A stretch of DNA of 64,000 bases from Promethearchaeota archaeon (GCA_048937405.1 JBHLNF010000001.1:544001-608000), one strand, 5' to 3'. Shown: positions 2,805-40,070, counted from the stretch's first letter. Made by a program: numbers and translations. Notes: generated by a model not told the origin, from the sequence alone.

Positions 2805-2838
2805 AATTTAATAATACTATTTTTAATATGTTTTTAAG

Positions 2839-3303
2839 GTGATTTTGGAAATTAAGAAAATTAAATTAACGATATTTGCACCAGATCCAGAAAAGAAATT
2901 GTCAAAAGGACTTGATTATGATTTGGAAATAGGCGATAATGGAACTATTATTGACGCATTAAGCTTATTAGATAAAAAAATTTATGATAATATCGAAGAT
3001 ACTATATTCCCAATTTATAAAGGCTTAATTAAAAGTTATCTTCAACTAATTTGGGATGCTGAGGAAAATATAATTTATGAGGATTGTGCTGTAAACGCTT
3101 ATGGTCCTCATAAAGAGTTCATGGCTTTACATGATGATATTAACTTTAATTTATATCCTAATAGTGAAATAACTATCGCTGTCCATGCTGATTGATGAGC
3201 TGATGTAATGAAAGAGAGATTAGATTATGGGACATTTAAAAGGATTATTATGAAAAAATATGGAAAAGATCATAAGAGTTTCGCCCATTATTTTAATTTA
3301 TAA
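2839..3303 (+). CDS. Putative selenoprotein, ThiS/MoaD-like beta-grasp protein with tandem in-frame UGA-UGA (3193-3198)
   Basis: ORF track stops at 3195, but GAT-TGA-TGA is followed by 34 open codons to TAA 3303 and a SECIS 14 nt later. Confidence 0.65.
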
Positions 3304-3316
3304 AAAATTAATTAAG

Positions 3317-3358
3317 TTGGATGAAATCTTTTAATAAAAATTAGTAAAAGATTGACAA
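3317..3358 (+). ncRNA. Eukaryote-type SECIS element (cis RNA hairpin)
   Basis: TTG-g-ATGA-a-ATCTTTTA-at-AAAAA-ttag-TAAAAGAT-t-GA-CAA: AUGA/GA core, 8-bp helix II, apical As. Confidence 0.8.
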
Positions 3359-3409
3359 GAGGATTGCCTCCTTTAAGAATCAAATTTATTCGAAAGAAGA
3401 TATGTCATT

Positions 3410-5866
3410 TTATCCAGTAAACTGTGTTTGTACTTGTTCATACAAGTTCTTCTTATAAATAATTTTCACTCCAGACCTAGCAGCAATAAAGATTATTATA
3501 ATAGGGATCAGAAACGTGCCAAGATATGTAAACATTGTAAACCTCGGAAAGATCGCAAATTCATCTTGATATGCATTAATCATATAGTTTGCTACTAGTG
3601 GTATTGATAAAAGTGCAATCATGACTGCAATAAGGGTCCAGATAAGATTTTCAAATAATATTTGCATATATATTTTCTTTTTCTTGACACCAAGGCTTCG
3701 CAATACTCCATATTCATTTTCATGTTCTGTAATCTTCATTAGTGTAGAATTGATCAATATAAATAATTCAACAATTCCTGCAAATCCTACGACAACACCG
3801 ATAAATGGGATTAATAAATCTCCGTATATCTTTATTTGGTTTATTAAATCTGCCATCGGTTGAACTAATGAGATCTTATCAGATATATTATATATATCAT
3901 TGATAAATTCTGATTCATCATTAGGAGTAGAGGAATAGGATATGAAGAGGACATTTATTTTTTCAAGCTGATTTGAAAAGTGCTGAGCAGAATCCAATAA
4001 AACATAACAAGTTGTCATAATTTCTTTGGTAATTCCAACAATTATGAATTGTTTCTTATTTCCTAAAGGGTTATAAATTGTGATGTTTTCTCCAATATCT
4101 AATCCCAATTTACGTGAAATATGGTCTGAAATTATAATTTCGTCATTACTTTGATAAAGTCGACTGGATCCTCCATTCTTATTAATGAAGTTGAAATTAT
4201 GTAATGATTGATTCGATTTAAGCCCCAATAAAATTCCTGTTTGATTGTCAGCTTCATTTTGGGGATTCTCAAATAGCAGAGTTAATTTAAGTGCTGATTC
4301 TGTTTTTTCAATATCTGGTAAACTACTGATATCTTGCATCTCAGATCCTTTATCATCCATTCCGATTGAAAAAGTTACACTCATATCCCATTTTTCTGTT
4401 AATCTTATTGCATTATTGGTCGTATAGTGTACACTATCCCACATTAAAAGCATTGAGCTTACAATTATTATGGAAAATGTGATTCCGATCATTGTTAGAG
4501 CTGTATTACGTGGATTTTTCCTAAAATTCCTCCAAAATAATTTGGTTGATGGGCGCATCCTGGTTTTATCTCTTCTTGCTAATTTAAATCTTTTTTTATG
4601 ATGTTTAAATCCTTCAGATCCTTGTTGCTTATAAACTAAATCAACCATATTTTTCTTCATCATTTTATAAATGGGAGGAATCATTGATAAAATACCAATT
4701 GTTAAACTTAATAAAAAAGCCTCAATAATTAAAGCAAATGAGAATGGAAAAAGGATTGTTGTCCCTAGAATTCCTGTACCCATTTCAATCATCATTTCTT
4801 CGATTAGTACATAAGCAAACACAATACTAATTACAGTTGATATCAGCGTAATTTGTAATAACAGTACAATAAATGATTTGGATATCTTTTTCTTGGAGTA
4901 TCCCAGGCATCCGAGAATGCCTATTTGTTTTTGTTGGGACGTGATAAATTGTCTATAAATCGACATATTCGCTGTTAGTGCCATTATAATCGCAAGAATT
5001 AAAATTATAAAAAATACTTGCGTACTTCCTTCCAAATCACTCATTACATAATTCCATGCATAACTCTTCTCAAACGGAGTGCTTGAGATTAATTGAATAC
5101 CGAGACTACCAAATTTATCTTCTATTTCCCTATTTATATCATCTTGATTAGCATTCGCATCAAATACAACCTGTAATTGGTTAAATTGATATGACACATA
5201 TGGAAAAAATAATAACGGATTAGAAGCATTAACTATTTGGATTAAATCGTTTACATCTACAAATCCAATACCCATTGACCCTTTTATAGGAAATAATACT
5301 TCAGGTGCGGTATTGGTCATCGTAAATTCAATGCTCCAAAAAACTCCTTTGATCGTAAAGTTAGCATTTCCTAATGATTCAATAGTAAGATTCTCTAAAT
5401 TTTTGAGATTTCGTGCCTTAAAAAATTCTTTTGAAAGTAATATCATATGGTAATCAACAGGTTGCAGATTACTTCCAGACTGTAATTCATAATGATATAT
5501 CGGTAAATTTTCTGTGTCAGAAAAAGATGATGACACATTAATTCCGATTAATCGTATTAGATATGTTTGTGGGTCATCCTTTATCTTAATCGGGAATTGA
5601 AATACAAGTCGGGGTACAATATCTTTTACTCCAGGTATTGATCTAATCTCTGATGCGACACTTGAATTAAATCCTGAAGTAATATATTCATAATCTGCCC
5701 GATCTGCATCTCTATAGAGATCTCCAAACAGCGGTTTAATAGAAGAAAAGATTTGAAAGATTCCAACGGCAAAACCAATACATAGAGATAATATAATAAT
5801 TAAAATTATCCTTCGCTTTCCTAACCTTTTTAAATCTTTCCAAGGTTTTTTATTGATTAATTTCAT
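3410..5866 (-). CDS. FtsX/MacB-like ABC transporter permease (two FtsX repeats)
   Basis: IGILGCLGYSKKKI and YGVLRSLGVKKKKI motifs, two large extracellular domains. Confidence 0.85.
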   Translation of the reverse strand: MKLINKKPWKDLKRLGKRRIILIIILSLCIGFAVGIFQIFSSIKPLFGDLYRDADRADYEYITSGFNSSVASEIRSIPGVKDIVPRLVFQFPIKIKDDPQTYLIRLIGINVSSSFSDTENLPIYHYELQSGSNLQPVDYHMILLSKEFFKARNLKNLENLTIESLGNANFTIKGVFWSIEFTMTNTAPEVLFPIKGSMGIGFVDVNDLIQIVNASNPLLFFPYVSYQFNQLQVVFDANANQDDINREIEDKFGSLGIQLISSTPFEKSYAWNYVMSDLEGSTQVFFIILILAIIMALTANMSIYRQFITSQQKQIGILGCLGYSKKKISKSFIVLLLQITLISTVISIVFAYVLIEEMMIEMGTGILGTTILFPFSFALIIEAFLLSLTIGILSMIPPIYKMMKKNMVDLVYKQQGSEGFKHHKKRFKLARRDKTRMRPSTKLFWRNFRKNPRNTALTMIGITFSIIIVSSMLLMWDSVHYTTNNAIRLTEKWDMSVTFSIGMDDKGSEMQDISSLPDIEKTESALKLTLLFENPQNEADNQTGILLGLKSNQSLHNFNFINKNGGSSRLYQSNDEIIISDHISRKLGLDIGENITIYNPLGNKKQFIIVGITKEIMTTCYVLLDSAQHFSNQLEKINVLFISYSSTPNDESEFINDIYNISDKISLVQPMADLINQIKIYGDLLIPFIGVVVGFAGIVELFILINSTLMKITEHENEYGVLRSLGVKKKKIYMQILFENLIWTLIAVMIALLSIPLVANYMINAYQDEFAIFPRFTMFTYLGTFLIPIIIIFIAARSGVKIIYKKNLYEQVQTQFTG

Positions 5867-25101: not shown

Positions 25102-27609
25102 TTAATTAAGATAGGGACCTGTTTTGGACTTTTTATTCATTTTAATTTCAATTGGAGTTCCCTCTGCGATGACTTCTCCTCCTTTTGGTCCTCCATCAGG
25201 TCCTAATTCGATTATATAATCACAATATGAGAGGATCTCTGGATCATGCTCAATAATTAGAACAGTATTGCCCTCTTGAACTAATTTTTCAAGTAAATCT
25301 ATTAATTTAATTGTATCATAAAACGATAATCCAACAGTAGGTTCATCTAAAATGTAAAGAGATGACCCTTTTCTGATTTTCCCTAATTCTTTAGCCAATT
25401 TTACTCGTTGTGCTTCTCCTCCGCTAAGTGTTGGAGCAGGTTGTCCAAGTTCGATATAACCCATTCCAATCTCATCCAATATCTTAAGTACTTTTGAGAT
25501 ACCTTCTTGCGATTTAAACAACTGTGCTGCTTCATTAACAGTCATTTGAAGTACATCTGATATAGATTTTCCTTTATATTTAACTTCTAAAATTTCAAGT
25601 CTGTATCTTAATCCCTTGCACTCCTTACATGGAATTTCAAAACTAGTAAGAAAAGATACTTGTAGGTCTTGTACACCCTGCCCTTTACAAGCGGGACAAC
25701 GACCACGATCAGAATTATAAGAAAAATGTCCAGCGGTATACTTTCGTTTTTTAGCTTCACCAGTCTTTGCAAATAAGTTTCGAACCTTATCCCATATTCC
25801 TATAAAGGAACAAGGGGTTGAAGTACGAACTCGTGATATGGGTTTTTGATTAACAACAACTACTCCATCAATATTTTCCCACCCTTCTACTTGTCCAGAA
25901 TATTCTAATAAATCTCCGCCATTTTCTTCCTCTTCTTCACCATTTTCTCCCTTTTTATTAATCTTATTTTTTCCTTTTCTTCTAAAATATGGTCTCAATA
26001 AAGGAACTAATGTATCTAATATAAGAGAGCTTTTTCCAGACCCTGATACTCCAGCAATACCCACCATTACTCCTAAAGGAAATTTAATGGTCACATCTTT
26101 CAAATTGTTTGTGGTTGCATTCTTGAGTGTTAGATATTTCATATCACCTCCAATTTTCCTAACAATACTGGAATCTTTCTCAGGCAATGAAATAGTTTCA
26201 GCAAGAAATTGTCCTGTATATGATTCCTTAATCTTTTTAATTCCTTCAATTGTTCCTTGATAAACAATATTACCTCCATCAATACCTGCACCCGGACCAA
26301 TATCGATTATTTCATCTGCAATATCTATGAATCGTTTATCATGTTCAACAACAATAACAGTATTACCTAATTCCTTTAATTGTTGCAAAATATGAACTAA
26401 GGAATCTTTTTCTTTCTCATGCAAACTCATGCTGGGCTCATCTAAGATATAAACCAAGGAATCTAATCCTCCATCTAAATGAGACATTAGTGAGAGCCTT
26501 TGTAATTCTCCTCCACTTAGTGTAGGTAGGGAACGATGTAAATGTAAGTAAGATAATCCAACATTGATCATTCGGTTCAAACCTTGTTTAACATTTTCAA
26601 GCATAAATCTTCCTTGTGGACTTCTAATATCTTCATCTGTTAAATTATCAATGAAATATTTGAGTTCATCAATTGTCATTGTTGCAAGTTCCCCTATATG
26701 TCTATCCGCAATTTTTATTTCCCTTGCTTCTTCATTAATACGAAATCCTTGGCATTCATCACACTTCTTCTTAGACATATATTCTTTAGTAATTTTATTC
26801 TTTCTATATGCACTCTTACCTTCTGTCATCGCACGTTTCATATGGGGGATTATCCCTTCAAATACTCTTTCTAATTCTCCTTGAAATGTTTTTGATTCCC
26901 ACGAAAACTTAAACTTCTTACCTTTACTCCCATAAATATATAGGTCTTTAATTTCTTGTGGCAAATCCTTATAAGGAGTCTTAATGTTAAAATCAAAGAA
27001 ATTTGGAAGTTGTTCAACAAATCTTATTTGATCAGCAAAGCATCCTGATCCAGCTTTAGTAATTTGTAGTAAATTTCTATTATAATCTTGAACAATCATT
27101 TGTTCTGTAAAATGCATCTCATATCCTCGACCTTTACATGCTAAACACATCCCAGAAGGTTCATTAAACGAAAAATGCTTAATTTGCTTACGTTCTACCA
27201 CCATCCCACATAAATCACATTCCAGAGTTGATTGATTTACTGGATCTTTGCAGATTGGACAGATTAGGATTCCTTCTGTAGCATATAACATTCGGATTAG
27301 ACCATATATCCCAGTTTTAGTACCAACTGTAGATCGTGGGTTAAATACTCTTGTAGTCCTCTGCTCAACCGCCACAGTTGGGCTTAAGCCTTCAATCATA
27401 TCAAAAGGTTTTTCATCTTCAAACTTGGGAGGAAATCCAATGGACTGGAGATACCGATTCATTCCCTCATCAAATATTATATCGAATGCTAAGCTAGACT
27501 TTCCTGAGCCAGATACTCCTGTAATAAGGATCATCTTTCCCTTAGGAATATCTACATCTATATCCTTTAAATTATGTATTCTTGCTCCTCTTACTTTTAT
27601 AACATCCAT
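25102..27609 (-). CDS. UvrA-like ABC ATPase, class II (DrrC/Ecm16-like)
   Basis: GARIHNLKDIDV, two NBDs, zinc fingers; short between first CxxC and FSFN, so UvrB-binding domain appears absent. Confidence 0.85.
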   Translation of the reverse strand: MDVIKVRGARIHNLKDIDVDIPKGKMILITGVSGSGKSSLAFDIIFDEGMNRYLQSIGFPPKFEDEKPFDMIEGLSPTVAVEQRTTRVFNPRSTVGTKTGIYGLIRMLYATEGILICPICKDPVNQSTLECDLCGMVVERKQIKHFSFNEPSGMCLACKGRGYEMHFTEQMIVQDYNRNLLQITKAGSGCFADQIRFVEQLPNFFDFNIKTPYKDLPQEIKDLYIYGSKGKKFKFSWESKTFQGELERVFEGIIPHMKRAMTEGKSAYRKNKITKEYMSKKKCDECQGFRINEEAREIKIADRHIGELATMTIDELKYFIDNLTDEDIRSPQGRFMLENVKQGLNRMINVGLSYLHLHRSLPTLSGGELQRLSLMSHLDGGLDSLVYILDEPSMSLHEKEKDSLVHILQQLKELGNTVIVVEHDKRFIDIADEIIDIGPGAGIDGGNIVYQGTIEGIKKIKESYTGQFLAETISLPEKDSSIVRKIGGDMKYLTLKNATTNNLKDVTIKFPLGVMVGIAGVSGSGKSSLILDTLVPLLRPYFRRKGKNKINKKGENGEEEEENGGDLLEYSGQVEGWENIDGVVVVNQKPISRVRTSTPCSFIGIWDKVRNLFAKTGEAKKRKYTAGHFSYNSDRGRCPACKGQGVQDLQVSFLTSFEIPCKECKGLRYRLEILEVKYKGKSISDVLQMTVNEAAQLFKSQEGISKVLKILDEIGMGYIELGQPAPTLSGGEAQRVKLAKELGKIRKGSSLYILDEPTVGLSFYDTIKLIDLLEKLVQEGNTVLIIEHDPEILSYCDYIIELGPDGGPKGGEVIAEGTPIEIKMNKKSKTGPYLN

Positions 27610-32924: not shown

Positions 32925-33740
32925 ATGCAAAAATCTCTCGAACAACGTGTAGAGATTATATTTCAAGACAATGTAAAAAATATTGAATTACTTAGTTATT
33001 TTAAGAGATCTACAAAAAAGACTCCAGTTTTTTTGGGGGATATTAATAGAAAATATACTGAAATTCGACCTCTATTAGATAGAGGATTAATAATTGATCA
33101 GAAAGCTGTAAAAACTTATATTTTTTATCTTGACAAATTTGAGAATTATTTTTATGAGCAATATCAAGAAAAGATAGATATTCTAAAAGTTGAGATTTGG
33201 AGTAGGAAAAGAAAGAAAAATGAGCTTATTGAACTCACAGAAAACATAACACCAGAAGAAGGATGTGATGATTATGAAGAAAAGCTACGTGCTTGCATTG
33301 ATTTTGCCAAAAAATCGATTGAAAAATTAGATATTATGGAGATTGAAAAAGAAGATTATAATAATATAGTTGGAGAATTACAAGTAAAAAAGCAAAGTGA
33401 TCCCCTTCATAATTTTCTGATGTATATTCGAAATGATAAGGAAATTATTTTTAATAAGAGAACTGAAGATGATGATGGACTCATTCATAAAAAAATACTT
33501 AATTATTTAAATAAAAGTACTAATGGGAAAGGATGGCAATTTTTCACCGAACTAAAAAAAAAAGGTTTTTTTAAAGAATTTTCACCTGCTAAAACCTATT
33601 TCATAACTGAGCTTGGTTTGATGGTTGATAGAAAGTTAAAAGAAATGATGTGGAAACAAGAAGAAAATTTTGAAAAAACTGAAATGGAAAAAGCTCAAGA
33701 AGAAGAATTTAATAAACTAAAAGATTTATGGGGTTTATAA
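32925..33740 (+). CDS. Hypothetical protein
   Basis: 271-aa ORF, charged and helical; no recognised motif. Confidence 0.6.
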   Translation: MQKSLEQRVEIIFQDNVKNIELLSYFKRSTKKTPVFLGDINRKYTEIRPLLDRGLIIDQKAVKTYIFYLDKFENYFYEQYQEKIDILKVEIWSRKRKKNELIELTENITPEEGCDDYEEKLRACIDFAKKSIEKLDIMEIEKEDYNNIVGELQVKKQSDPLHNFLMYIRNDKEIIFNKRTEDDDGLIHKKILNYLNKSTNGKGWQFFTELKKKGFFKEFSPAKTYFITELGLMVDRKLKEMMWKQEENFEKTEMEKAQEEEFNKLKDLWGL

Positions 33741-33971
33741 GAATCCAGAGATAAGATCTCAGATAAGAAAGATTCTTTTTCAAGGTTTTTTGCTTTTTTT
33801 ATGGTTTCTGAGAATGATTATAATTTCCCAATCAGAATAAATTTTAGTAATAACTATTTACTTATAAATAATGCGGACCCGAATAATACGGAACCTTTTT
33901 ATATGATAGTTAATAATCTATACTTGCATAATTATTTTTAAATCTATAATTTAAAATTTATGGAGTGTGAA

Positions 33972-34421
33972 ATGAAGAATATAAATGAGAAGGATAAAAT
34001 AATGTCTTGTTTAATGGAAGGGTTCAACTGATCTCAAGCGATATTTTCAACATATGCTATTAGATTTGGTATAAATCGTGAACTAGCATTAAAAATTTCT
34101 GGAGGTTTCGGAGGTGGCATGGCAGGTTTAGGTAATACTTGTGGGGCTATTACCGGTGCTTTTATGATCTTAGGACTTAAGTATGGTAATGAAAAAATTG
34201 GAGGAGAAGAGCCAAATAAAAAGCTTTTTACTATGATTAGAGAATTTGTCTCGCGATTCGAATTAACTTATAATACCATTAAATGTAGAGACTTAATTGG
34301 TTATGATATTAGCACACCTGAAGGAAGACAACTTGCTAAAGACAAGAATATTTTCAATACTATATGTCCAAAAGTAATTTTAAATTCTGCTGCTATTCTT
34401 GAAGAGATGTTATCTAAATAA
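33972..34421 (+). CDS. C-GCAxxG-C-C family redox protein, selenocysteine form (UGA 34029-34031)
   Basis: GGAG SD, ATG 33972, EGFN-U-SQAIF...SGGFGGGMAGLGNTCGAITGA...IKCRDL...C; UGA sits at the family's conserved first Cys (FNCAQ-type). Confidence 0.85.
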
Positions 34422-34510
34422 TTTTTAAAAAAAGATATAAGAATAAAGAAAAACTGTAGTTTTAAAATTCAAAAAAAGGAATATATAACAATAGAGGCGT
34501 TATCATATAT

Positions 34511-34762
34511 ATGGATAATCGAACCACAGCATTGATAGGTATTGGAGCTACAGTCATTACGCAATGCCAGCCCTGATTTGAGACTATGTTCAATTTTGCT
34601 CAAAAAAGCGGTGTTAATGAACAAGAAATATTAGACGCAATTAAATTAGCAAAAAAAGCAAGAAAACACGCAATTTCGAGGATGGATAAATTTATTTCAA
34701 CATTTTTAGAGTCAAATGAAGGATCTGTGAAGAATTCCGGAAAAAGTGGATGTTGTAGTTAA
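34511..34762 (+). CDS. AhpD/carboxymuconolactone decarboxylase-like selenoprotein (CxxU; UGA 34574-34576), 83 aa
   Basis: MDNRTTALIGIGATVITQ-CQP-U-FETMFNFAQKSGVNEQEILDAIKLA...SGCCS*; absent from ORF track. Confidence 0.85.
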
Positions 34763-34794
34763 ACTTTGGAAATATTATGCCATTAAAAAAATAA

Positions 34795-34840
34795 ATTGAA
34801 TGATATCCTTCAGTAAAAATGATAGTGAGGGATTGACAAT
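34795..34840 (+). ncRNA. Eukaryote-type SECIS element
   Basis: ATTG-a-ATGA-t-ATCCTTCA-gt-AAAAA-tgatag-TGAGGGAT-t-GA-CAAT, 33 nt after the AhpD-like stop. Confidence 0.85.
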
Positions 34841-35053
34841 AGGATAGCTTCCTTTAAGTATCTTTTAAATTTTTCAGTAAGTTAAATTGTAAGTATATAA
34901 TTTTTTATGGTTTGTTTAAGGAATTATCTTGAATAAAGTATAAATTTATCTCGAATAATCAAGAGATAAGATTTCCGATCAGAACAAACATTTTAAAGGA
35001 GAATCTAAAATATAAAAAAGAAAATAAGAATATTCATAAATTTGAATGTCTGA

Positions 35054-35515
35054 TTATACAATAAAAGAGATTGTGTCTACAACATTTCCAAAAATCCCTG
35101 CTGTAAGAACCTTTTCAGGCTTAATAAATATTCTCGTAAATTTTTCCAAACCTCCGGCAGTCAGCTGTTCATAAATTTTTCTTGTCATCTCTCCGTGATA
35201 AGATAAGAATTCATCAAAGGTTTTTTGATTTAAAATTTCTAATTCTGCTTTACCCTTGATATATATAACTTTAGGCATTCCAGACGAATCAGTTGCATCA
35301 AAAGTTAACCAAATATTGTTATTATTTTTGATATTGTTAATCTTTTTTCTTGTGTTTTTTGATAAGATAATACAATTTAATTGGGATGTTATTGAAAATT
35401 GAACCAGAGTTGTGTGAGGTTCACCATTACCACAAGTACTTAGGGAGCAATTTCTAATTTCTTTTAGGATATTTAGGATTTTATCTTTTTGTTCTTCATT
35501 CAGTTTATTTACCAT
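35054..35515 (-). CDS. Pyridoxamine 5'-phosphate oxidase-like (split barrel) protein
   Basis: CSLSTCGNGEPH, TRKKINNIKNNNNI, IKGKAE, IFIKPEK. Confidence 0.75.
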   Translation of the reverse strand: MVNKLNEEQKDKILNILKEIRNCSLSTCGNGEPHTTLVQFSITSQLNCIILSKNTRKKINNIKNNNNIWLTFDATDSSGMPKVIYIKGKAELEILNQKTFDEFLSYHGEMTRKIYEQLTAGGLEKFTRIFIKPEKVLTAGIFGNVVDTISFIV

Positions 35516-35620
35516 ATTCTTTCACATTAAAGTTTTTTTGATTTTCAGGATATATATATTATTACATAAAACATCAGATATATTGGAATAATAATTACTT
35601 TAATTAATGTATTCCACAAT

Positions 35621-37297
35621 TTAAACCATTTTTATTTTTGGTTTGGTTATGATAAACTGACATTTTGGACAGATTTTATAATAGCGGTAACCTTGCATTG
35701 TGCTAAAAAAGTTCGAACCTAAAATACCTGCTGGTAAAATAAAAAGTGATACTCCCAGAAAAGCTAAAGCAATTGTACAAAAACGACCTCCTGTAGTTAT
35801 CGGGTATACATCGCCAAATCCAGTAGTTGTGAACGTGATAATTCCCATCCACAATGTAGTAGGAATATCTGAAAATTTAGTTGGTTGAGCATTTCTCTCT
35901 AAATAATAAATTAATGTAGAAGCAAATATAAGAAAAATACAACAGAGAGTAGTAGTAACTAAAAACTCTCGTTTTGTTTCCTTAAAAATTAATCCTGTAA
36001 CCCTAAACACGTCAATAAAATGACCTATTTTAAAAATAACTAACATTCTTAAAATTTGAAGGTATAAAACTAAAATGCGAATATGATTTAAAAAAAATAT
36101 AAGATACAAAGCAATAAGAATAATAATGTCAATAATAGCTATTGGACTTAAGATATATTTTATTCTTCCTCTAATAGGATTCTTAAATTTCTCTTTTTTT
36201 GAAGCAACGACACACCAGACTCGTAATATATATTCAACGGAAAATACAATGATTGAAAATATTAACAGTGAATTTAATAAAGATTTAAATTCTAAATATA
36301 ATTCTGGATTGGTTCCAACCATTACTGCTAAAATATTTAGTGTGATAATACTTGCAAAGAAAATAAATACAATCTTTTGACCTAATTTAGAGGGAAATCT
36401 AAAATGAATTAGCTTATATATTTTCTTTTTATAATTTCCCTTTGAAGAAATTTTTAAATCTTTTTTCTTGTCTTTCTTTTTTCTTAATTGCATTATAAAC
36501 TCAGATTTTGAAATAACTTCTTGACAATTGGGACAAATTTCTGAGGAAGGTTTCCTCTCTTCAAGTTCCTCAAGGAATCCAGATACAATAACACTAGCGG
36601 GTAATAAGAATAATGTTATTCCAATAAAGGATATAATTCCTGATACAATTTTTCCAAATAGAGTTAAAGGTACAATATCCCCATAACCGATTGTAAAAAG
36701 ATTTATTGCCGTAAACCACATAGAGCTAAATAGATTAGTAATTTTATCAGGTTGGGCATCATGTTCAGCAATATATATGAATATCGCTCCAAAAAACATC
36801 AAAATTAAAGAAAGCATTAAAGTGATTAATAATTCTTCTTTTTTGCGTTTTATTACCGCTAATATAATTTTAAAAGATCCAGAATAACGAGTGAATTTAA
36901 GAAGTACAAATAAACGCAAAAATCGTGTAAAATCCATTACATCAATAACAAAAAAACCTATCAAATAGGTTACAAATGAGATAGCACTTAGAAAATCAAT
37001 TACTCCTATAATACTTGTAAAATAATCCCATCGAGTTGAAATTGAATTTCCCACTCTAATTTTTTGATTATATGTCCAAAAACGGAGAAAATATTCCAAA
37101 TTAAATGTAAAACCAATAATGCAAGATAATAAAATAAAGACTACATAGAATTGTTGTAGTAAATTTTTTTCGGTTTCTAATATTGCGATAGTCCCATATA
37201 CAAAACTTGACATAATCAGCCAAATGGTTATAAATTTTGCTGAAATAGTCTTTACAATTGGAAAATTCAAACTTTTAAAGATTTTCTCTTTTATCAT
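35621..37297 (-). CDS. Internally duplicated potassium channel (2 x 6TM ion-transport domains)
   Basis: Two filters (TIGYGD, TTGFGD), two S4-like segments, each half followed by CPxC. Confidence 0.85.
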   Translation of the reverse strand: MIKEKIFKSLNFPIVKTISAKFITIWLIMSSFVYGTIAILETEKNLLQQFYVVFILLSCIIGFTFNLEYFLRFWTYNQKIRVGNSISTRWDYFTSIIGVIDFLSAISFVTYLIGFFVIDVMDFTRFLRLFVLLKFTRYSGSFKIILAVIKRKKEELLITLMLSLILMFFGAIFIYIAEHDAQPDKITNLFSSMWFTAINLFTIGYGDIVPLTLFGKIVSGIISFIGITLFLLPASVIVSGFLEELEERKPSSEICPNCQEVISKSEFIMQLRKKKDKKKDLKISSKGNYKKKIYKLIHFRFPSKLGQKIVFIFFASIITLNILAVMVGTNPELYLEFKSLLNSLLIFSIIVFSVEYILRVWCVVASKKEKFKNPIRGRIKYILSPIAIIDIIILIALYLIFFLNHIRILVLYLQILRMLVIFKIGHFIDVFRVTGLIFKETKREFLVTTTLCCIFLIFASTLIYYLERNAQPTKFSDIPTTLWMGIITFTTTGFGDVYPITTGGRFCTIALAFLGVSLFILPAGILGSNFFSTMQGYRYYKICPKCQFIITKPKIKMV

Positions 37298-37589
37298 GTG
37301 TACTTCTATATCTTAATTCTGTATCATGATTATTAAACAATTTTAAGAATTTTTAAAAATATTATTATACTTCACATTTTTATAGTTGTTGGCAAAAAGT
37401 AATCCTAAATTAGATTGAAAAAATTGTTAAGTTAATGAAAATGTTCTCAAAAAATAAAAAATAGAAATGCTCTAAGTTCTCAATTTTTAATGATTACTAT
37501 TTAAAATATGATTAAATGTTTTTTTAAATAAAAAAAAGTGGTTAGTATAGAATTTTGGCATAAAAGACAAATTGAAAATTTATTGAAAA

Positions 37590-38105
37590 CTAACTGTTCT
37601 CAGTTTTTGATATCATTTTAGAAATATTATCTATTTCCTTTACATAGTTTGCAGTTAAATCAGTTATTAATAGTTTTGAATTACTAGTCGAAATTAAATT
37701 ACCTTTCATATCATGTATTTTAGCGATTGCATGAAGAACATTGTTACTTTCATTAATTACCTTTCCTTGAACTCTAACTTTTTCCTCAACTTTAACTTTT
37801 CCTATAAAATCAACATGGAAATCCATACTAATTGGAAAGCCTTCATAACCTAAAGTGGCTACTGCCATACCAATAGCATTATCCAACATCCCACACTGTA
37901 TTCCTCCATGGAATAAGTTAACGGGATTTGTCATTTCTGATCTAATGAAAAATTCCAATTCTACAAAACCACGTTCCACATTTATAATTATCCCATTTAG
38001 CCATCTTGCATAAGCAATTTTGGCAAAATTTTTTAATTCAATACCTTTCATAGAATTAAAAAACGATAACATATGTTTTGAACGTTCATCAGTATTTTCA
38101 AGCAT
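37590..38105 (-). CDS. PaaI family hotdog thioesterase
   Basis: MTNPVNLFHGG....LD.A.G. Confidence 0.88.
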   Translation of the reverse strand: MLENTDERSKHMLSFFNSMKGIELKNFAKIAYARWLNGIIINVERGFVELEFFIRSEMTNPVNLFHGGIQCGMLDNAIGMAVATLGYEGFPISMDFHVDFIGKVKVEEKVRVQGKVINESNNVLHAIAKIHDMKGNLISTSNSKLLITDLTANYVKEIDNISKMISKTENS

Positions 38106-38114
38106 ATTTGATTA

Positions 38115-38918
38115 TCACCTAAATCTTTTTTCTAGTGTTTTTTGATGTATAGCGAAAGCTACAAAAAGAAATCCAAATCCAAATCCTAGAAGTACTAAAA
38201 TATCAATTAGTAATCCGAAAGATCCAAATGCACTGACCTCTCCTAAGCCAATGTTTAATACATCAAGACAATATGTAATTGGAGAGATTACTGCAGTTGC
38301 AATTGAATTAATTGGCATAAACAGCGGACTGATAAATAATAATGGAAATTTAATTAAAATTTGTAATATCATTGTATTTCCAGGATTTCTTGTTGGTGGC
38401 GAGGAAATTATCAAACTAAAACTAGAAAAAACTAATGAAGCAAGAATCATACCGGTAATAATTAGAAAATAATTAATAACTAATCCACTTGATAGGAATA
38501 TTACTCCTAAAACCAAAGGAATTGACGAGAATAATAAACCATATATAAATGAACTCCAAATACTACCAATTAATATTGTCTTAATTGAAACTGGACAAGT
38601 AGTTAAACGCTCAAAAGTACCACGAATAGTCTCCCATGGAAAAATGATTGGTCCCAATGAAGTCGAAGTTAAGAAAAGAACCATTGCTATTATTCCAGAA
38701 ATAAGGTAAATTGGTGATATGGTTCTTCCTATTGTAAAAGCAAAAAATAATATTATTGGAAAAAAGATCCCTTGAATTAATACAGGTGGTTTATTATAAT
38801 AAATTCTCAAATCTTTTTTAGTAATTATAAAAGATCTCTTTATTTGAGTTTTAAAAGTACTAAACCTAGATTCTTTAGATAATATAAATTCCTTATTAAT
38901 TTTTATCACCTCTTTCAA
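38115..38918 (-). CDS. ABC-2 type transporter permease
   Basis: WETIRGTFERL..CPVS, SPITY; ~6 TM. Confidence 0.88.
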   Translation of the reverse strand: MKEVIKINKEFILSKESRFSTFKTQIKRSFIITKKDLRIYYNKPPVLIQGIFFPIILFFAFTIGRTISPIYLISGIIAMVLFLTSTSLGPIIFPWETIRGTFERLTTCPVSIKTILIGSIWSSFIYGLLFSSIPLVLGVIFLSSGLVINYFLIITGMILASLVFSSFSLIISSPPTRNPGNTMILQILIKFPLLFISPLFMPINSIATAVISPITYCLDVLNIGLGEVSAFGSFGLLIDILVLLGFGFGFLFVAFAIHQKTLEKRFR

Positions 38919-39885
38919 TGATTTTTAAAAATGCATCTTCTAATTTTGGTTGATGCGTATTTACTTGTTTTATAATTAAATGATTTTGCTTAATGAAATC
39001 TACAATTTCACAAATAGCCTTATGAATATCTTCAACAATTATGTGAAACCCTTCATTTACCTCTTGAACTTCTCTTACAGAACTCAATTCTTCAATTTTA
39101 GTTTTATTTACACCATTAGCAAAATAAAAATCGATTGCTTTATATTCTTGAGTTAATTTTTTTAAGTTTCTAGGAGTATCCAAACTAATTACTTTACCAT
39201 GATTAATAATTGCGATTCTATGACATAATTTATTCGCAACTTCCATGTCATGCGTTGTTAGAAATATTGTTACCCCTTTTTCATTATACTCTCTTATCAA
39301 TTGTTTTATTATACGAGCAGACTGCACATCTAATCCACTTGTGGGTTCATCAAGAAATAAAATTTCTGGATTACTCATTAACGCCATGCATAGCAATAAT
39401 CTTTGTTTCATTCCCTTCGAATATTTCATTGATTTTAAATTGCGCTTTTCGTATAGTTCGAATTTTTTAAGTAAAGTCTCTGCGCGATTTAAGCGAGTTT
39501 TTTTAGGAACACCATAAATTTCTCCAATAAACATTAAATTCTGTAATCCAGTTAGGTCGAAATATACATTAGCTTCTTCAGGAACGTTTCCTGTGATTTG
39601 TTTTACGAGAATTTGATTTTTCCATACATCATGGCCAAAAATAGATACATTTCCCTTTGTAGGTCTTAATACCCCTGTCATCATCCGTATTGTTGTAGTT
39701 TTACCTGCGCCATTTGGACCTAAAAACCCAAAAACCTCCCCTTTTTTCACCTCGAAGCTAATATCGTCAACTGCACGAATATTACCCTTTGTTTTCTGTG
39801 GAGTATTTGGTCCCATCTTCATACCTTTCCCTTTTTTTGGAACATCAAAATATTTAGATAGATGGTTTATCACTATAACACTCAT
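38896..39885 (-). CDS. ABC transporter ATP-binding protein (multidrug type)
   Basis: GPNGAGKTT, YSKGMKQR, LFLDEPTSGLD. Confidence 0.93.
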   Translation of the reverse strand: MSVIVINHLSKYFDVPKKGKGMKMGPNTPQKTKGNIRAVDDISFEVKKGEVFGFLGPNGAGKTTTIRMMTGVLRPTKGNVSIFGHDVWKNQILVKQITGNVPEEANVYFDLTGLQNLMFIGEIYGVPKKTRLNRAETLLKKFELYEKRNLKSMKYSKGMKQRLLLCMALMSNPEILFLDEPTSGLDVQSARIIKQLIREYNEKGVTIFLTTHDMEVANKLCHRIAIINHGKVISLDTPRNLKKLTQEYKAIDFYFANGVNKTKIEELSSVREVQEVNEGFHIIVEDIHKAICEIVDFIKQNHLIIKQVNTHQPKLEDAFLKIIERGDKN

Positions 39886-39911
39886 TATTACACCTCTTTA
39901 AGAAAATCTCC

Positions 39912-40070
39912 TTATTTTTCCTCTTCTTCTAATTGAATGTGTTTTAAAAGTTCATTGATTGGTTGATCTCCATGACATTTAATAATTTGATTTAAAGTAC
40001 ACCCCTGTGGATGCTTCTCTTTTATTTCTGGTTTATCACATTCACATTCTTCCGTTTCTTTAATTTTCAT
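39912..40070 (-). CDS. Small Cys/His protein (52 aa), unannotated
   Basis: MKIKETEECECDKPEIKEKHPQGCTLNQIIKCHGDQPINELLKHIQLEEEEK*; AAGGT SD; heads the ABC operon. Confidence 0.65.
   Translation of the reverse strand: MKIKETEECECDKPEIKEKHPQGCTLNQIIKCHGDQPINELLKHIQLEEEEK

Follow-up and report, generated by a model that had tools for sequence, protein, structure and literature searches.

The window, by which we mean the whole stretch of 64,000 nucleotides (nt) analysed here, comes from the genome of a Promethearchaeota archaeon (GCA_048937405.1, JBHLNF010000001.1, positions 544001-608000). It contains two consecutive genes on the same strand that each carry an in-frame TGA codon, and a single selenocysteine insertion sequence (SECIS) element of the Loki type (lokiSECIS) follows the second of them. 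Gene 1 encodes a putative selenocysteine (Sec, U) protein of the C_GCAxxG_C_C family and gene 2 a small protein that resembles the core of the AhpD and CMD proteins. They are interpreted below as a candidate two-gene selenoprotein unit served by this one element. The features of the locus, in window coordinates, are as follows.

33972-34421 (+), gene 1, putative Sec protein of 149 codons, with the ATG at 33972, an in-frame TGA at codon 20 and the stop codon at 34419-34421
34029-34031 (+), UGA 1 (GFN-U-SQA), at the first invariant Cys of the C_GCAxxG_C_C family according to the homologue alignment
34422-34510 (+), AT-rich spacer of 89 nt, with a T5 run directly after the gene 1 stop codon and GAGG 12 nt 5' of the gene 2 ATG
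34511-34762 (+), gene 2, AhpD/CMD-core-like, 83 codons, with an in-frame TGA at codon 22, a CQPU motif (C-x-x-U) and a Cys-rich tail, GCCS
34574-34576 (+), UGA 2 (CQP-U), at the second Cys of a CxxC motif according to the homologue alignment; context ...TQCQP-U-FET...
34790-34860 (+), Loki-type SECIS (eSECIS-like, type I), 50.2 bits with model R1, 37 nt past the gene 2 stop codon
34795-34798 paired with 34837-34840 (+), helix I of the SECIS
34800-34803 (+), AUGA of the SECIS, with the UGA of the 3' side at 34834-34836
34805-34812 paired with 34826-34833 (+), helix II of the SECIS, 8 bp
34813-34825 (+), apical loop of the SECIS, GUAAAAAUGAUAG
34841-34853 (+), small second hairpin 3' of helix I

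The SECIS lies in a non-coding gap of 291 nt (34763-35053). A pattern scan of the whole genome recovered a family of closely similar elements built as AUGA-N-8 bp-AAAAAUNNUAG-8 bp-N-GA, members of which were found after HdrA, FrhD/MvhD, VhuU and several small UGA-containing genes. The covariance model R1 was built from eight other elements, seven of this genome and one from a homologue of gene 2 in another genus (L045, see below), and the element under test was left out. In the R1 alignment, 91.7 % of the cells are paired and 12 of the 14 pairs are changed on both sides; the structure beats 500 of 500 shuffles (0 as good) and all slid controls. With the filters off, R1 scores 50.2 bits on 34790-34860 (E=6e-9 in the window, 4.5e-7 genome-wide). 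Across the 4.47 Mb genome (29 % G+C), 10 places reach at least 50 bits and the next best match has 22 bits.

The published lokiSECIS has an AUGA 5' of the stem and a GA 3' of it, and its apical loop contains an A5 run and ends in AG (PMC4989117). In the element after gene 2, the AUGA and the UGA are each one nucleotide away from the 8 bp helix II, and the apical loop GUAAAAAUGAUAG contains an A5 run and a terminal AG, with two extra nucleotides (GU) before the A-run. The loop stretch AAAAAUGAUAG is identical to that in the loop of the HdrA SECIS at C19:133238. The minimum free energy fold of the trimmed SECIS region reproduces the proposed structure; folded as a single piece, 34760-34900 was no better than shuffles. 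A strain variant within helix II (34805 A>G) preserves the pair as G-U. Stretches 79-87 % identical to the element occur at SECIS loci of many congeners, and other SECIS loci give rise to spikes in contig depth and to loose ends at 34815-34853. All of the R1-type elements have a small second hairpin of 2-4 bp directly 3' of helix I, with a loop around U(U/C)GCA (L054-L060 in this genome; columns 52-64 of alignment A3), and all three of its pairs are changed on both sides in the R1 alignment. The fit to R1 identifies the element after gene 2 as a true Loki-type SECIS, which is predicted to direct Sec insertion.

Like the eukaryotic SECIS (RF00031), the element has an AUGA...GA kink-turn core, an A-rich apical loop and a position in the 3' untranslated region. 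Unlike it, helix II is shorter (8 bp), there is an extra small 3' hairpin and there is no Rfam match: a search of 33000-36000 with all Rfam families at E values up to 10 returned only noise (mir-90 and snoRNA models), and RF00031 gave no match at the locus and none above threshold anywhere in the genome.

The match of gene 2 to the Pfam profile PF02627 (CMD) is marginal (25.3 bits, cut-off 23) and covers profile positions 21-65 of 84, and the AhpD-like PDB entry 2cwq is also matched (E=6e-4). Like the bacterial AhpD-like or CMD-like CxxU selenoproteins (PF02627; NF041047, GSU3128; NF041537, ArsM/AhpD fusion), the protein has the helix pair of the AhpD core, with Sec as the second Cys of CxxC. 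It differs from the bacterial AhpD-type selenoproteins in its length of 83 amino acids (aa), about half of the CMD profile, its Cys-rich C-terminal tail and its archaeal 3' SECIS. Its scores fall far short of the cut-offs set for the specific selenoprotein families of NCBIfam (21.3 against 110, 18.9 against 510 and 16.4 against 120 bits), and on these scores it resembles the named bacterial families without being a member of them.

The family of gene 2 is rare, with members of 80-105 aa in 12 of 399 Asgard genomes, typically with CxxC and a C-terminal CGC[SH] or CCS. In a MAFFT alignment, the U column of gene 2 contains Cys in eight of the nine homologues and U in the ninth, L045 (genome G173). 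This Sec orthologue belongs to another genus of the same GTDB family and carries a SECIS of its own about 20 nt past its stop codon (68.9 bits with R1). Its upstream neighbours are a gene for an ArsR-family regulator and a DUF166 gene, with no relative of gene 1. An R1 match is absent from the Cys-form homologues (five gene-2 loci and two gene-1 loci). Because the L045 orthologue has both Sec and its own SECIS and the Cys-form homologues lack one, gene 2 is almost certainly a selenoprotein gene, recoded via the 3' lokiSECIS. Together with the unrelated neighbours of L045, the same observations point to a SECIS that is native to the lineage of gene 2, with gene 1 as the newcomer. In public annotation, gene 2 is truncated at the TGA to give a 58-aa product, and protein homology searches with gene 2 and with the C-terminal part of gene 1 returned only the locus's own truncated products and distant Cys forms.

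Gene 1 matches the full Pfam profile PF09719 (C_GCAxxG_C_C) with 108 bits (cut-off 27; E=3.7e-31) and also NCBIfam TIGR01909 (75.4 bits, cut-off 47.4), which bears the NCBIfam title 'C-GCAxxG-C-C family (seleno)protein'. The four signature Cys positions of the family are represented by U20 (the first), C57 within TCGAITG, C105 and C132. In the MAFFT alignment with 11 homologues, the column of U20 (context ...EGFN-U-SQA...) is Cys in all 11, and the remaining family-invariant residues are retained in gene 1. The family was found in 247 of 399 genomes of the same phylum by a six-frame search, and the residue opposite U20 is Cys in each of the 30 best loci (GF[SNR]-C-[SA]Q). Flags of '1 TGA' on the gene-1 homologues of genomes G123, G189 and G064 were discarded, as this TGA is the terminal stop codon and not an in-frame Sec codon. 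The closest relatives of gene 1 are Asgard Cys forms with 51-56 % identity.

In gene 1, TGA is a single step away for 25 codons, of which just one corresponds to the first invariant family Cys, and it is precisely this one that is TGA. The 19 codons before it are intact, as are the start codon and the Shine-Dalgarno-like GGAG directly 5' of it. In public annotation, gene 1 is represented by a 126-aa product that starts downstream of the TGA (P0003, and P0014 in a second metagenome-assembled genome, MAG). Gene 1 is probably a selenoprotein gene too, given a UGA on the one invariant Cys among these 25 codons, an otherwise intact gene and a position immediately 5' of a SECIS-bearing gene in the same orientation.

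A SECIS belonging to gene 1 was sought in 33000-34790. The best R1 match in this interval, in the spacer, has 10.3 bits (E=5.3) and is a partial, noise-level match of a kind that occurs about 30 times in the window. As R1 misses two real variant SECIS of this genome, namely those of SelD and of the FrhD gene on contig C13, a relaxed kink-turn pattern was added; near gene 1 it gave matches at background level only (0.8-2.3 per kb). The spacer (34422-34510) contains no AUGA and its fold is not significant (z=-0.15). The distance to the AUGA of the one detectable SECIS is 226 nt for UGA 2 and 771 nt for UGA 1, with one full open reading frame (ORF) between UGA 1 and the element.

The original prediction for this locus had assigned the two proteins to the C-GCAxxG-C-C and AhpD/CMD-like families, and the PF09719/TIGR01909 and PF02627 scores above cut-off agree with it. 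It had also placed both UGAs on family-conserved Cys positions, which the Sec/Cys alignments bear out (11 of 11 homologues for gene 1; eight Cys and one U among nine for gene 2). The SECIS-like hairpin that it described after gene 2 was recognized as a genuine Loki-type element by a model from which it had been excluded, its view that no other SECIS is present accords with the R1 and relaxed-pattern searches, and the 89 nt gap indeed lacks an AUGA core. The distance of about 760 nt and one ORF that it gave between the first UGA and the SECIS was close to the measured 771 nt. Sec machinery is encoded in the genome and the UGAs are not read errors; had either been otherwise, recoding would by its own account have been refuted.

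The genome encodes SepSecS (377 bits) and, near it, an EFsec-like GTPase (232 bits), together with a PSTK-like kinase (154 bits); the last two scores are below the cut-offs of models built on bacterial and methanogen sequences. SelD is present and itself has a SECIS and an in-frame TGA, and HdrA, FrhD and VhuU also carry in-frame UGA codons. These genes indicate that the organism uses Sec. That it is an Asgard archaeon is borne out by a neighbouring gene, whose closest relatives, at 95 % identity, come from Promethearchaeota MAGs. TGA terminates 14 % of the long open frames, so the code is standard and TGA has not been reassigned.

The locus is contained in contigs of five sediment or metagenome runs from two studies. 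One contig (X4 record 17) represents a variant strain, in which gene 1 is about 3-4 % diverged; the 10 differences over 33919-34287 are all known and none falls in the TGA, so that UGA 1 is kept. The variant strain protein from the second Promethearchaeota MAG (P0014, 'C-GCAxxG-C-C family protein') has changes at 7 of its 126 residues, and its annotated start likewise lies just past the UGA. Past the UGA, the gene 1 sequences of the two strains differ by 6 synonymous and 9 non-synonymous changes, compared with a chance expectation of about 21 % synonymous (omega about 0.4). This weakly suggests that the post-UGA part of gene 1 is under constraint. X4 record 24 (34595-34897) represents a second haplotype of the 3' half of gene 2, about 10 % diverged and with a 1 nt deletion at 34658. 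An approximate reconstruction of this haplotype, built from 22 of the 29 differences, has a frameshifted tail, and it could reflect a frameshift in gene 2, an alternative C-terminal tail or an artefact of the alignment.

In three congeners (L068, L069 and L070), a conserved gene of 271 aa is followed by an ABC-transporter cluster on the same strand and a flavodoxin-like gene. In this genome, the place directly after the 271-aa gene is taken by the selenoprotein cassette, and an ABC transporter is inverted at 38115-39885 (compared region 33741-40000), which suggests a rearrangement at the cassette site. A scan of metagenome contigs with a SECIS-flank pattern found no further copy of the gene 1-gene 2 unit. 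It recovered Loki-type SECIS elements behind other families, namely a protein with two adjacent Sec codons (UU protein) and a CPHC protein with four (4-U), as well as chance matches in GC-richer contigs.

The explanation that we favour, with a probability of about 0.6, is that this Sec-using Loki-type Asgard (Promethearchaeota) archaeon has a two-gene selenoprotein unit that shares one 3' SECIS. The product of gene 2 would be an AhpD-core-like CxxU thiol/selenol oxidoreductase, with its UGA recoded by the lokiSECIS 37 nt past the stop codon. In gene 1, the codon for the first invariant Cys would have become UGA through a single third-position change, and this codon, with no SECIS of its own, would be read as Sec most likely through co-transcription with gene 2, the SECIS acting in cis from 771 nt downstream. 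The only visible way for the UGA of gene 1 to be read as Sec is through the distal SECIS of a bicistronic mRNA, and sharing of the element by both genes is plausible on the present analysis. The reasoning applied to gene 1 is the same as that applied to hdrA in the hdrA-vhuD and hdrA-frhD pairs. Co-transcription, actual Sec insertion and a redox function that is possibly metalloid-related are the parts of this explanation that we infer.

Since the nearest relatives of gene 1 are the Asgard Cys forms, its origin is most simply read as a local switch from Cys to Sec (TGY to TGA) that followed the arrival of the gene in a position upstream of gene 2 and the SECIS. More tentatively, and with somewhat less than an even chance of being right, gene 1 may have been caught just after its birth as a selenoprotein gene by what could be called SECIS piggy-backing. 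By this route, where the SECIS works from the 3' end of a polycistronic mRNA, any Cys codon co-transcribed upstream of an existing SECIS could become a functional Sec codon by one TGY-to-TGA change, with no RNA element gained.

Several observations weigh against a shared SECIS, and the one serious competitor draws on some of them. It holds that only gene 2 is a selenoprotein gene and that the UGA of gene 1 is a stop, gene 1 being either a recent nonsense pseudogene or the gene for an N-terminally truncated protein without the first Cys. We regard this as unlikely, if far from negligible. Gene 1 lacks its own SECIS, its UGA form is the sole one of the family among the Asgard genomes searched (Cys was found in all others inspected, 30 loci and that of G064, out of the 247 genomes with the family), and two annotations give it as a 126-aa product. 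A search of 5.8 billion proteins returned no close orthologue of gene 1, and 53 congeners lack the gene pair, which was seen in this species and its strains only. The spacer measures 89 nt, against about 10 nt in the hdrA-frhD pairs, begins with a T5 run and includes TATA-like stretches that are possibly promoter-like AT boxes. A T5 run is a possible archaeal terminator; such runs occur about six times per kb here, so its presence after gene 1 says little. Other adjacent Sec genes in metagenome contigs carry one SECIS each (L084). The excess of synonymous changes in gene 1 is not statistically strong. Finally, tRNA-Sec was not found with ARAGORN (default settings and with introns), at the RF01852 cut-off or by a scan of GC-rich islands, an absence that is uninformative because ARAGORN detects only 14 tRNAs in the assembly; calls made with a lowered ARAGORN threshold (6718) were pure noise and were rejected. 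Against gene 1 as a pseudogene or truncated gene stands the position of its UGA, exactly on the invariant first Cys and on one of 25 codons a step from TGA, in a gene that immediately precedes a SECIS-bearing gene on the same strand of a Sec-using genome. The 19 N-terminal codons, the start and the Shine-Dalgarno-like motif are intact and the other invariant residues are kept; moreover, the UGA and the intact frame persist in a strain that is about 4 % diverged, with an omega near 0.4 past the UGA, and a product lacking the invariant Cys would probably be inactive.

There is far less to be said for two other explanations. Gene 1 could be a selenoprotein gene with a non-canonical recoding element of its own, either in its 5' leader or in the coding region, where the best match to the relaxed kink-turn pattern (AUGA-UA-UUAGCA-(19 nt)-UGCUAA-A-GA) forms a 6 bp hairpin flanked by AUGA...GA at 34303-34342. 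That R1 is not exhaustive, missing the SelD and C13 FrhD elements, leaves some room for this, but matches of the relaxed kind occur at background frequency, and this hairpin has no A-run, terminal loop AG or second hairpin, receives no R1 score, matches nothing in Rfam and lies within a stretch conserved at the peptide level (DISTPEGR). We consider such an element very improbable. An artefact, with the TGAs being assembly or read errors or being read as a standard amino acid, is scarcely credible. One automatic gene call on a short contig did translate both TGAs as Trp (P0015 and P0016), but the TGAs recur in contigs of several runs from two studies and in the second MAG, TGA ends 14 % of long frames, homologous genes in relatives terminate with TGA and a SECIS is present.

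The shared-SECIS reading has a close precedent. Sharing of a single lokiSECIS by HdrA and VhuD on a presumed polycistronic mRNA was described by Mariotti et al. in 2016 (PMC4989117) and likewise by Huang et al. in 2024 (PMC11227280), and in Methanococcus maripaludis the distance between UGA and SECIS is not strictly limited (PMC9622424). The genome studied here has such pairs itself, for example hdrA-frhD at C28:546443-548925, with a 9 nt spacer and a distance of 2.4 kb between the first UGA of hdrA and the single SECIS located after frhD. Like the HdrA-VhuD (FrhD/MvhD) pairs of Lokiarchaeia, genes 1 and 2 are co-oriented neighbours with a single Loki-type SECIS that follows the distal gene, the proximal one having none, and their UGA-SECIS distances are comparable (hundreds of nt to about 2 kb). 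However, other protein families are involved, the spacer is 89 nt rather than about 10 nt and the proximal Sec form is unique to the species. Whereas HdrA and VhuD always co-occur, the gene 1-gene 2 pair is not conserved across genomes. The polycistronic recoding by one SECIS put forward in the original prediction is not a new principle, and in this respect the prediction was overstated.

The Sec-containing C-GCAxxG-C-C protein is a known bacterial selenoprotein family ('form 1'; PMC13188914). By hidden Markov model, gene 1 belongs to the same family, but its host is archaeal and its recoding would use a distal 3' Loki-type SECIS, whereas the bacterial SECIS sits just after the UGA. That Sec forms of both families occur in bacteria, as originally stated, is confirmed by the same review, which lists both as bacterial selenoprotein families. 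The published Asgard selenoproteome, drawn from more than 400 genomes, comprises seven families (PMC11227280). This type of SECIS, the use of Sec in Lokiarchaeia and the sharing of a SECIS are already published. What is new is the predicted Sec forms of PF09719 and of the small AhpD-like family in archaea, which, in line with the suggestion of new Asgard selenoproteome members, are absent both from the seven-family list and from the archaeal list of the 2026 review (PMC13188914). The locus would also be a second shared-SECIS candidate pair and the first outside HdrA-VhuD, with a looser architecture (89 nt spacer, pair not conserved).

If the shared-SECIS reading is true, a lokiSECIS acts across an 89 nt spacer and a complete translated downstream cistron, and a eukaryote-like SECIS could serve an upstream cistron in general. 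SECIS piggy-backing, if it occurs, would be a cheap general route for growth of the Asgard selenoproteome, and the unit offers a testable scenario for the appearance of new selenoproteins in the lineage closest to eukaryotes. Should gene 1 prove to be a pseudogene, one new archaeal selenoprotein family would remain, the small AhpD-like CxxU protein. As annotation truncates genes at UGA, homology-based catalogues may undercount Asgard selenoproteins, as these genes and other small UGA genes of this genome suggest.

Both families are candidates for thiol-redox functions. Two Asgard homologues of gene 2 adjoin a Methyltransf_31 (ArsM-type) gene, and the context of the family at L043 (G002), L046 (G397), L045 (G173) and L049 (G123) consists of Methyltransf_31, DUF166 or ArsR-family genes. 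Because of these neighbours and a faint similarity of gene 2 to the ArsM/AhpD fusion selenoproteins, metalloid or thiol-stress chemistry may be considered for gene 2, as a lead only. The neighbouring genes in the window (DinB/MST-like, PNPOx-like and a PadR regulator) fit a loose redox theme.

Concerning the tRNA genes of this assembly, we note that ARAGORN finds 14 (seven without introns), although the assembly is rated 100 % complete; the others are either largely unassembled or have unusual structures.

Further Loki-type SECIS loci were encountered. In the window, an ORF of 158 codons (2827-3303, +) with two adjacent in-frame TGAs and no Pfam match ends ...SEITIAVHAD-U-U-ADVMKERLDYG..., and a lokiSECIS (3311-3379, 66 bits with R1) follows 7 nt past it. 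This UU family and its SECIS are common in metagenome contigs (L072, L074, L075, L077, L082, L084 and L086). A protein of about 75 aa with four in-frame TGAs (...CPHCGHIN...DQ-U-LMWT.CQGC...HG-U-D-U-IFCTYGDVP-U-L...) and its own lokiSECIS is encoded in L083 (approximately 1740-1960), L084 (approximately 4300-4540) and L078 (approximately 60-380); it adjoins the UU gene, whose SECIS is separate. Elsewhere in the genome (G000), contig C28 has a further FrhD/MvhD-like gene that stands alone, contains two U and has a SECIS to itself (495942-496464, +). On contig C16, two lokiSECIS elements 460 nt apart (26156-26222 and 26617-26683, both on the minus strand) flank a small membrane ORF containing ...IKS-U-GM..., and no clear Sec ORF precedes the upstream copy.

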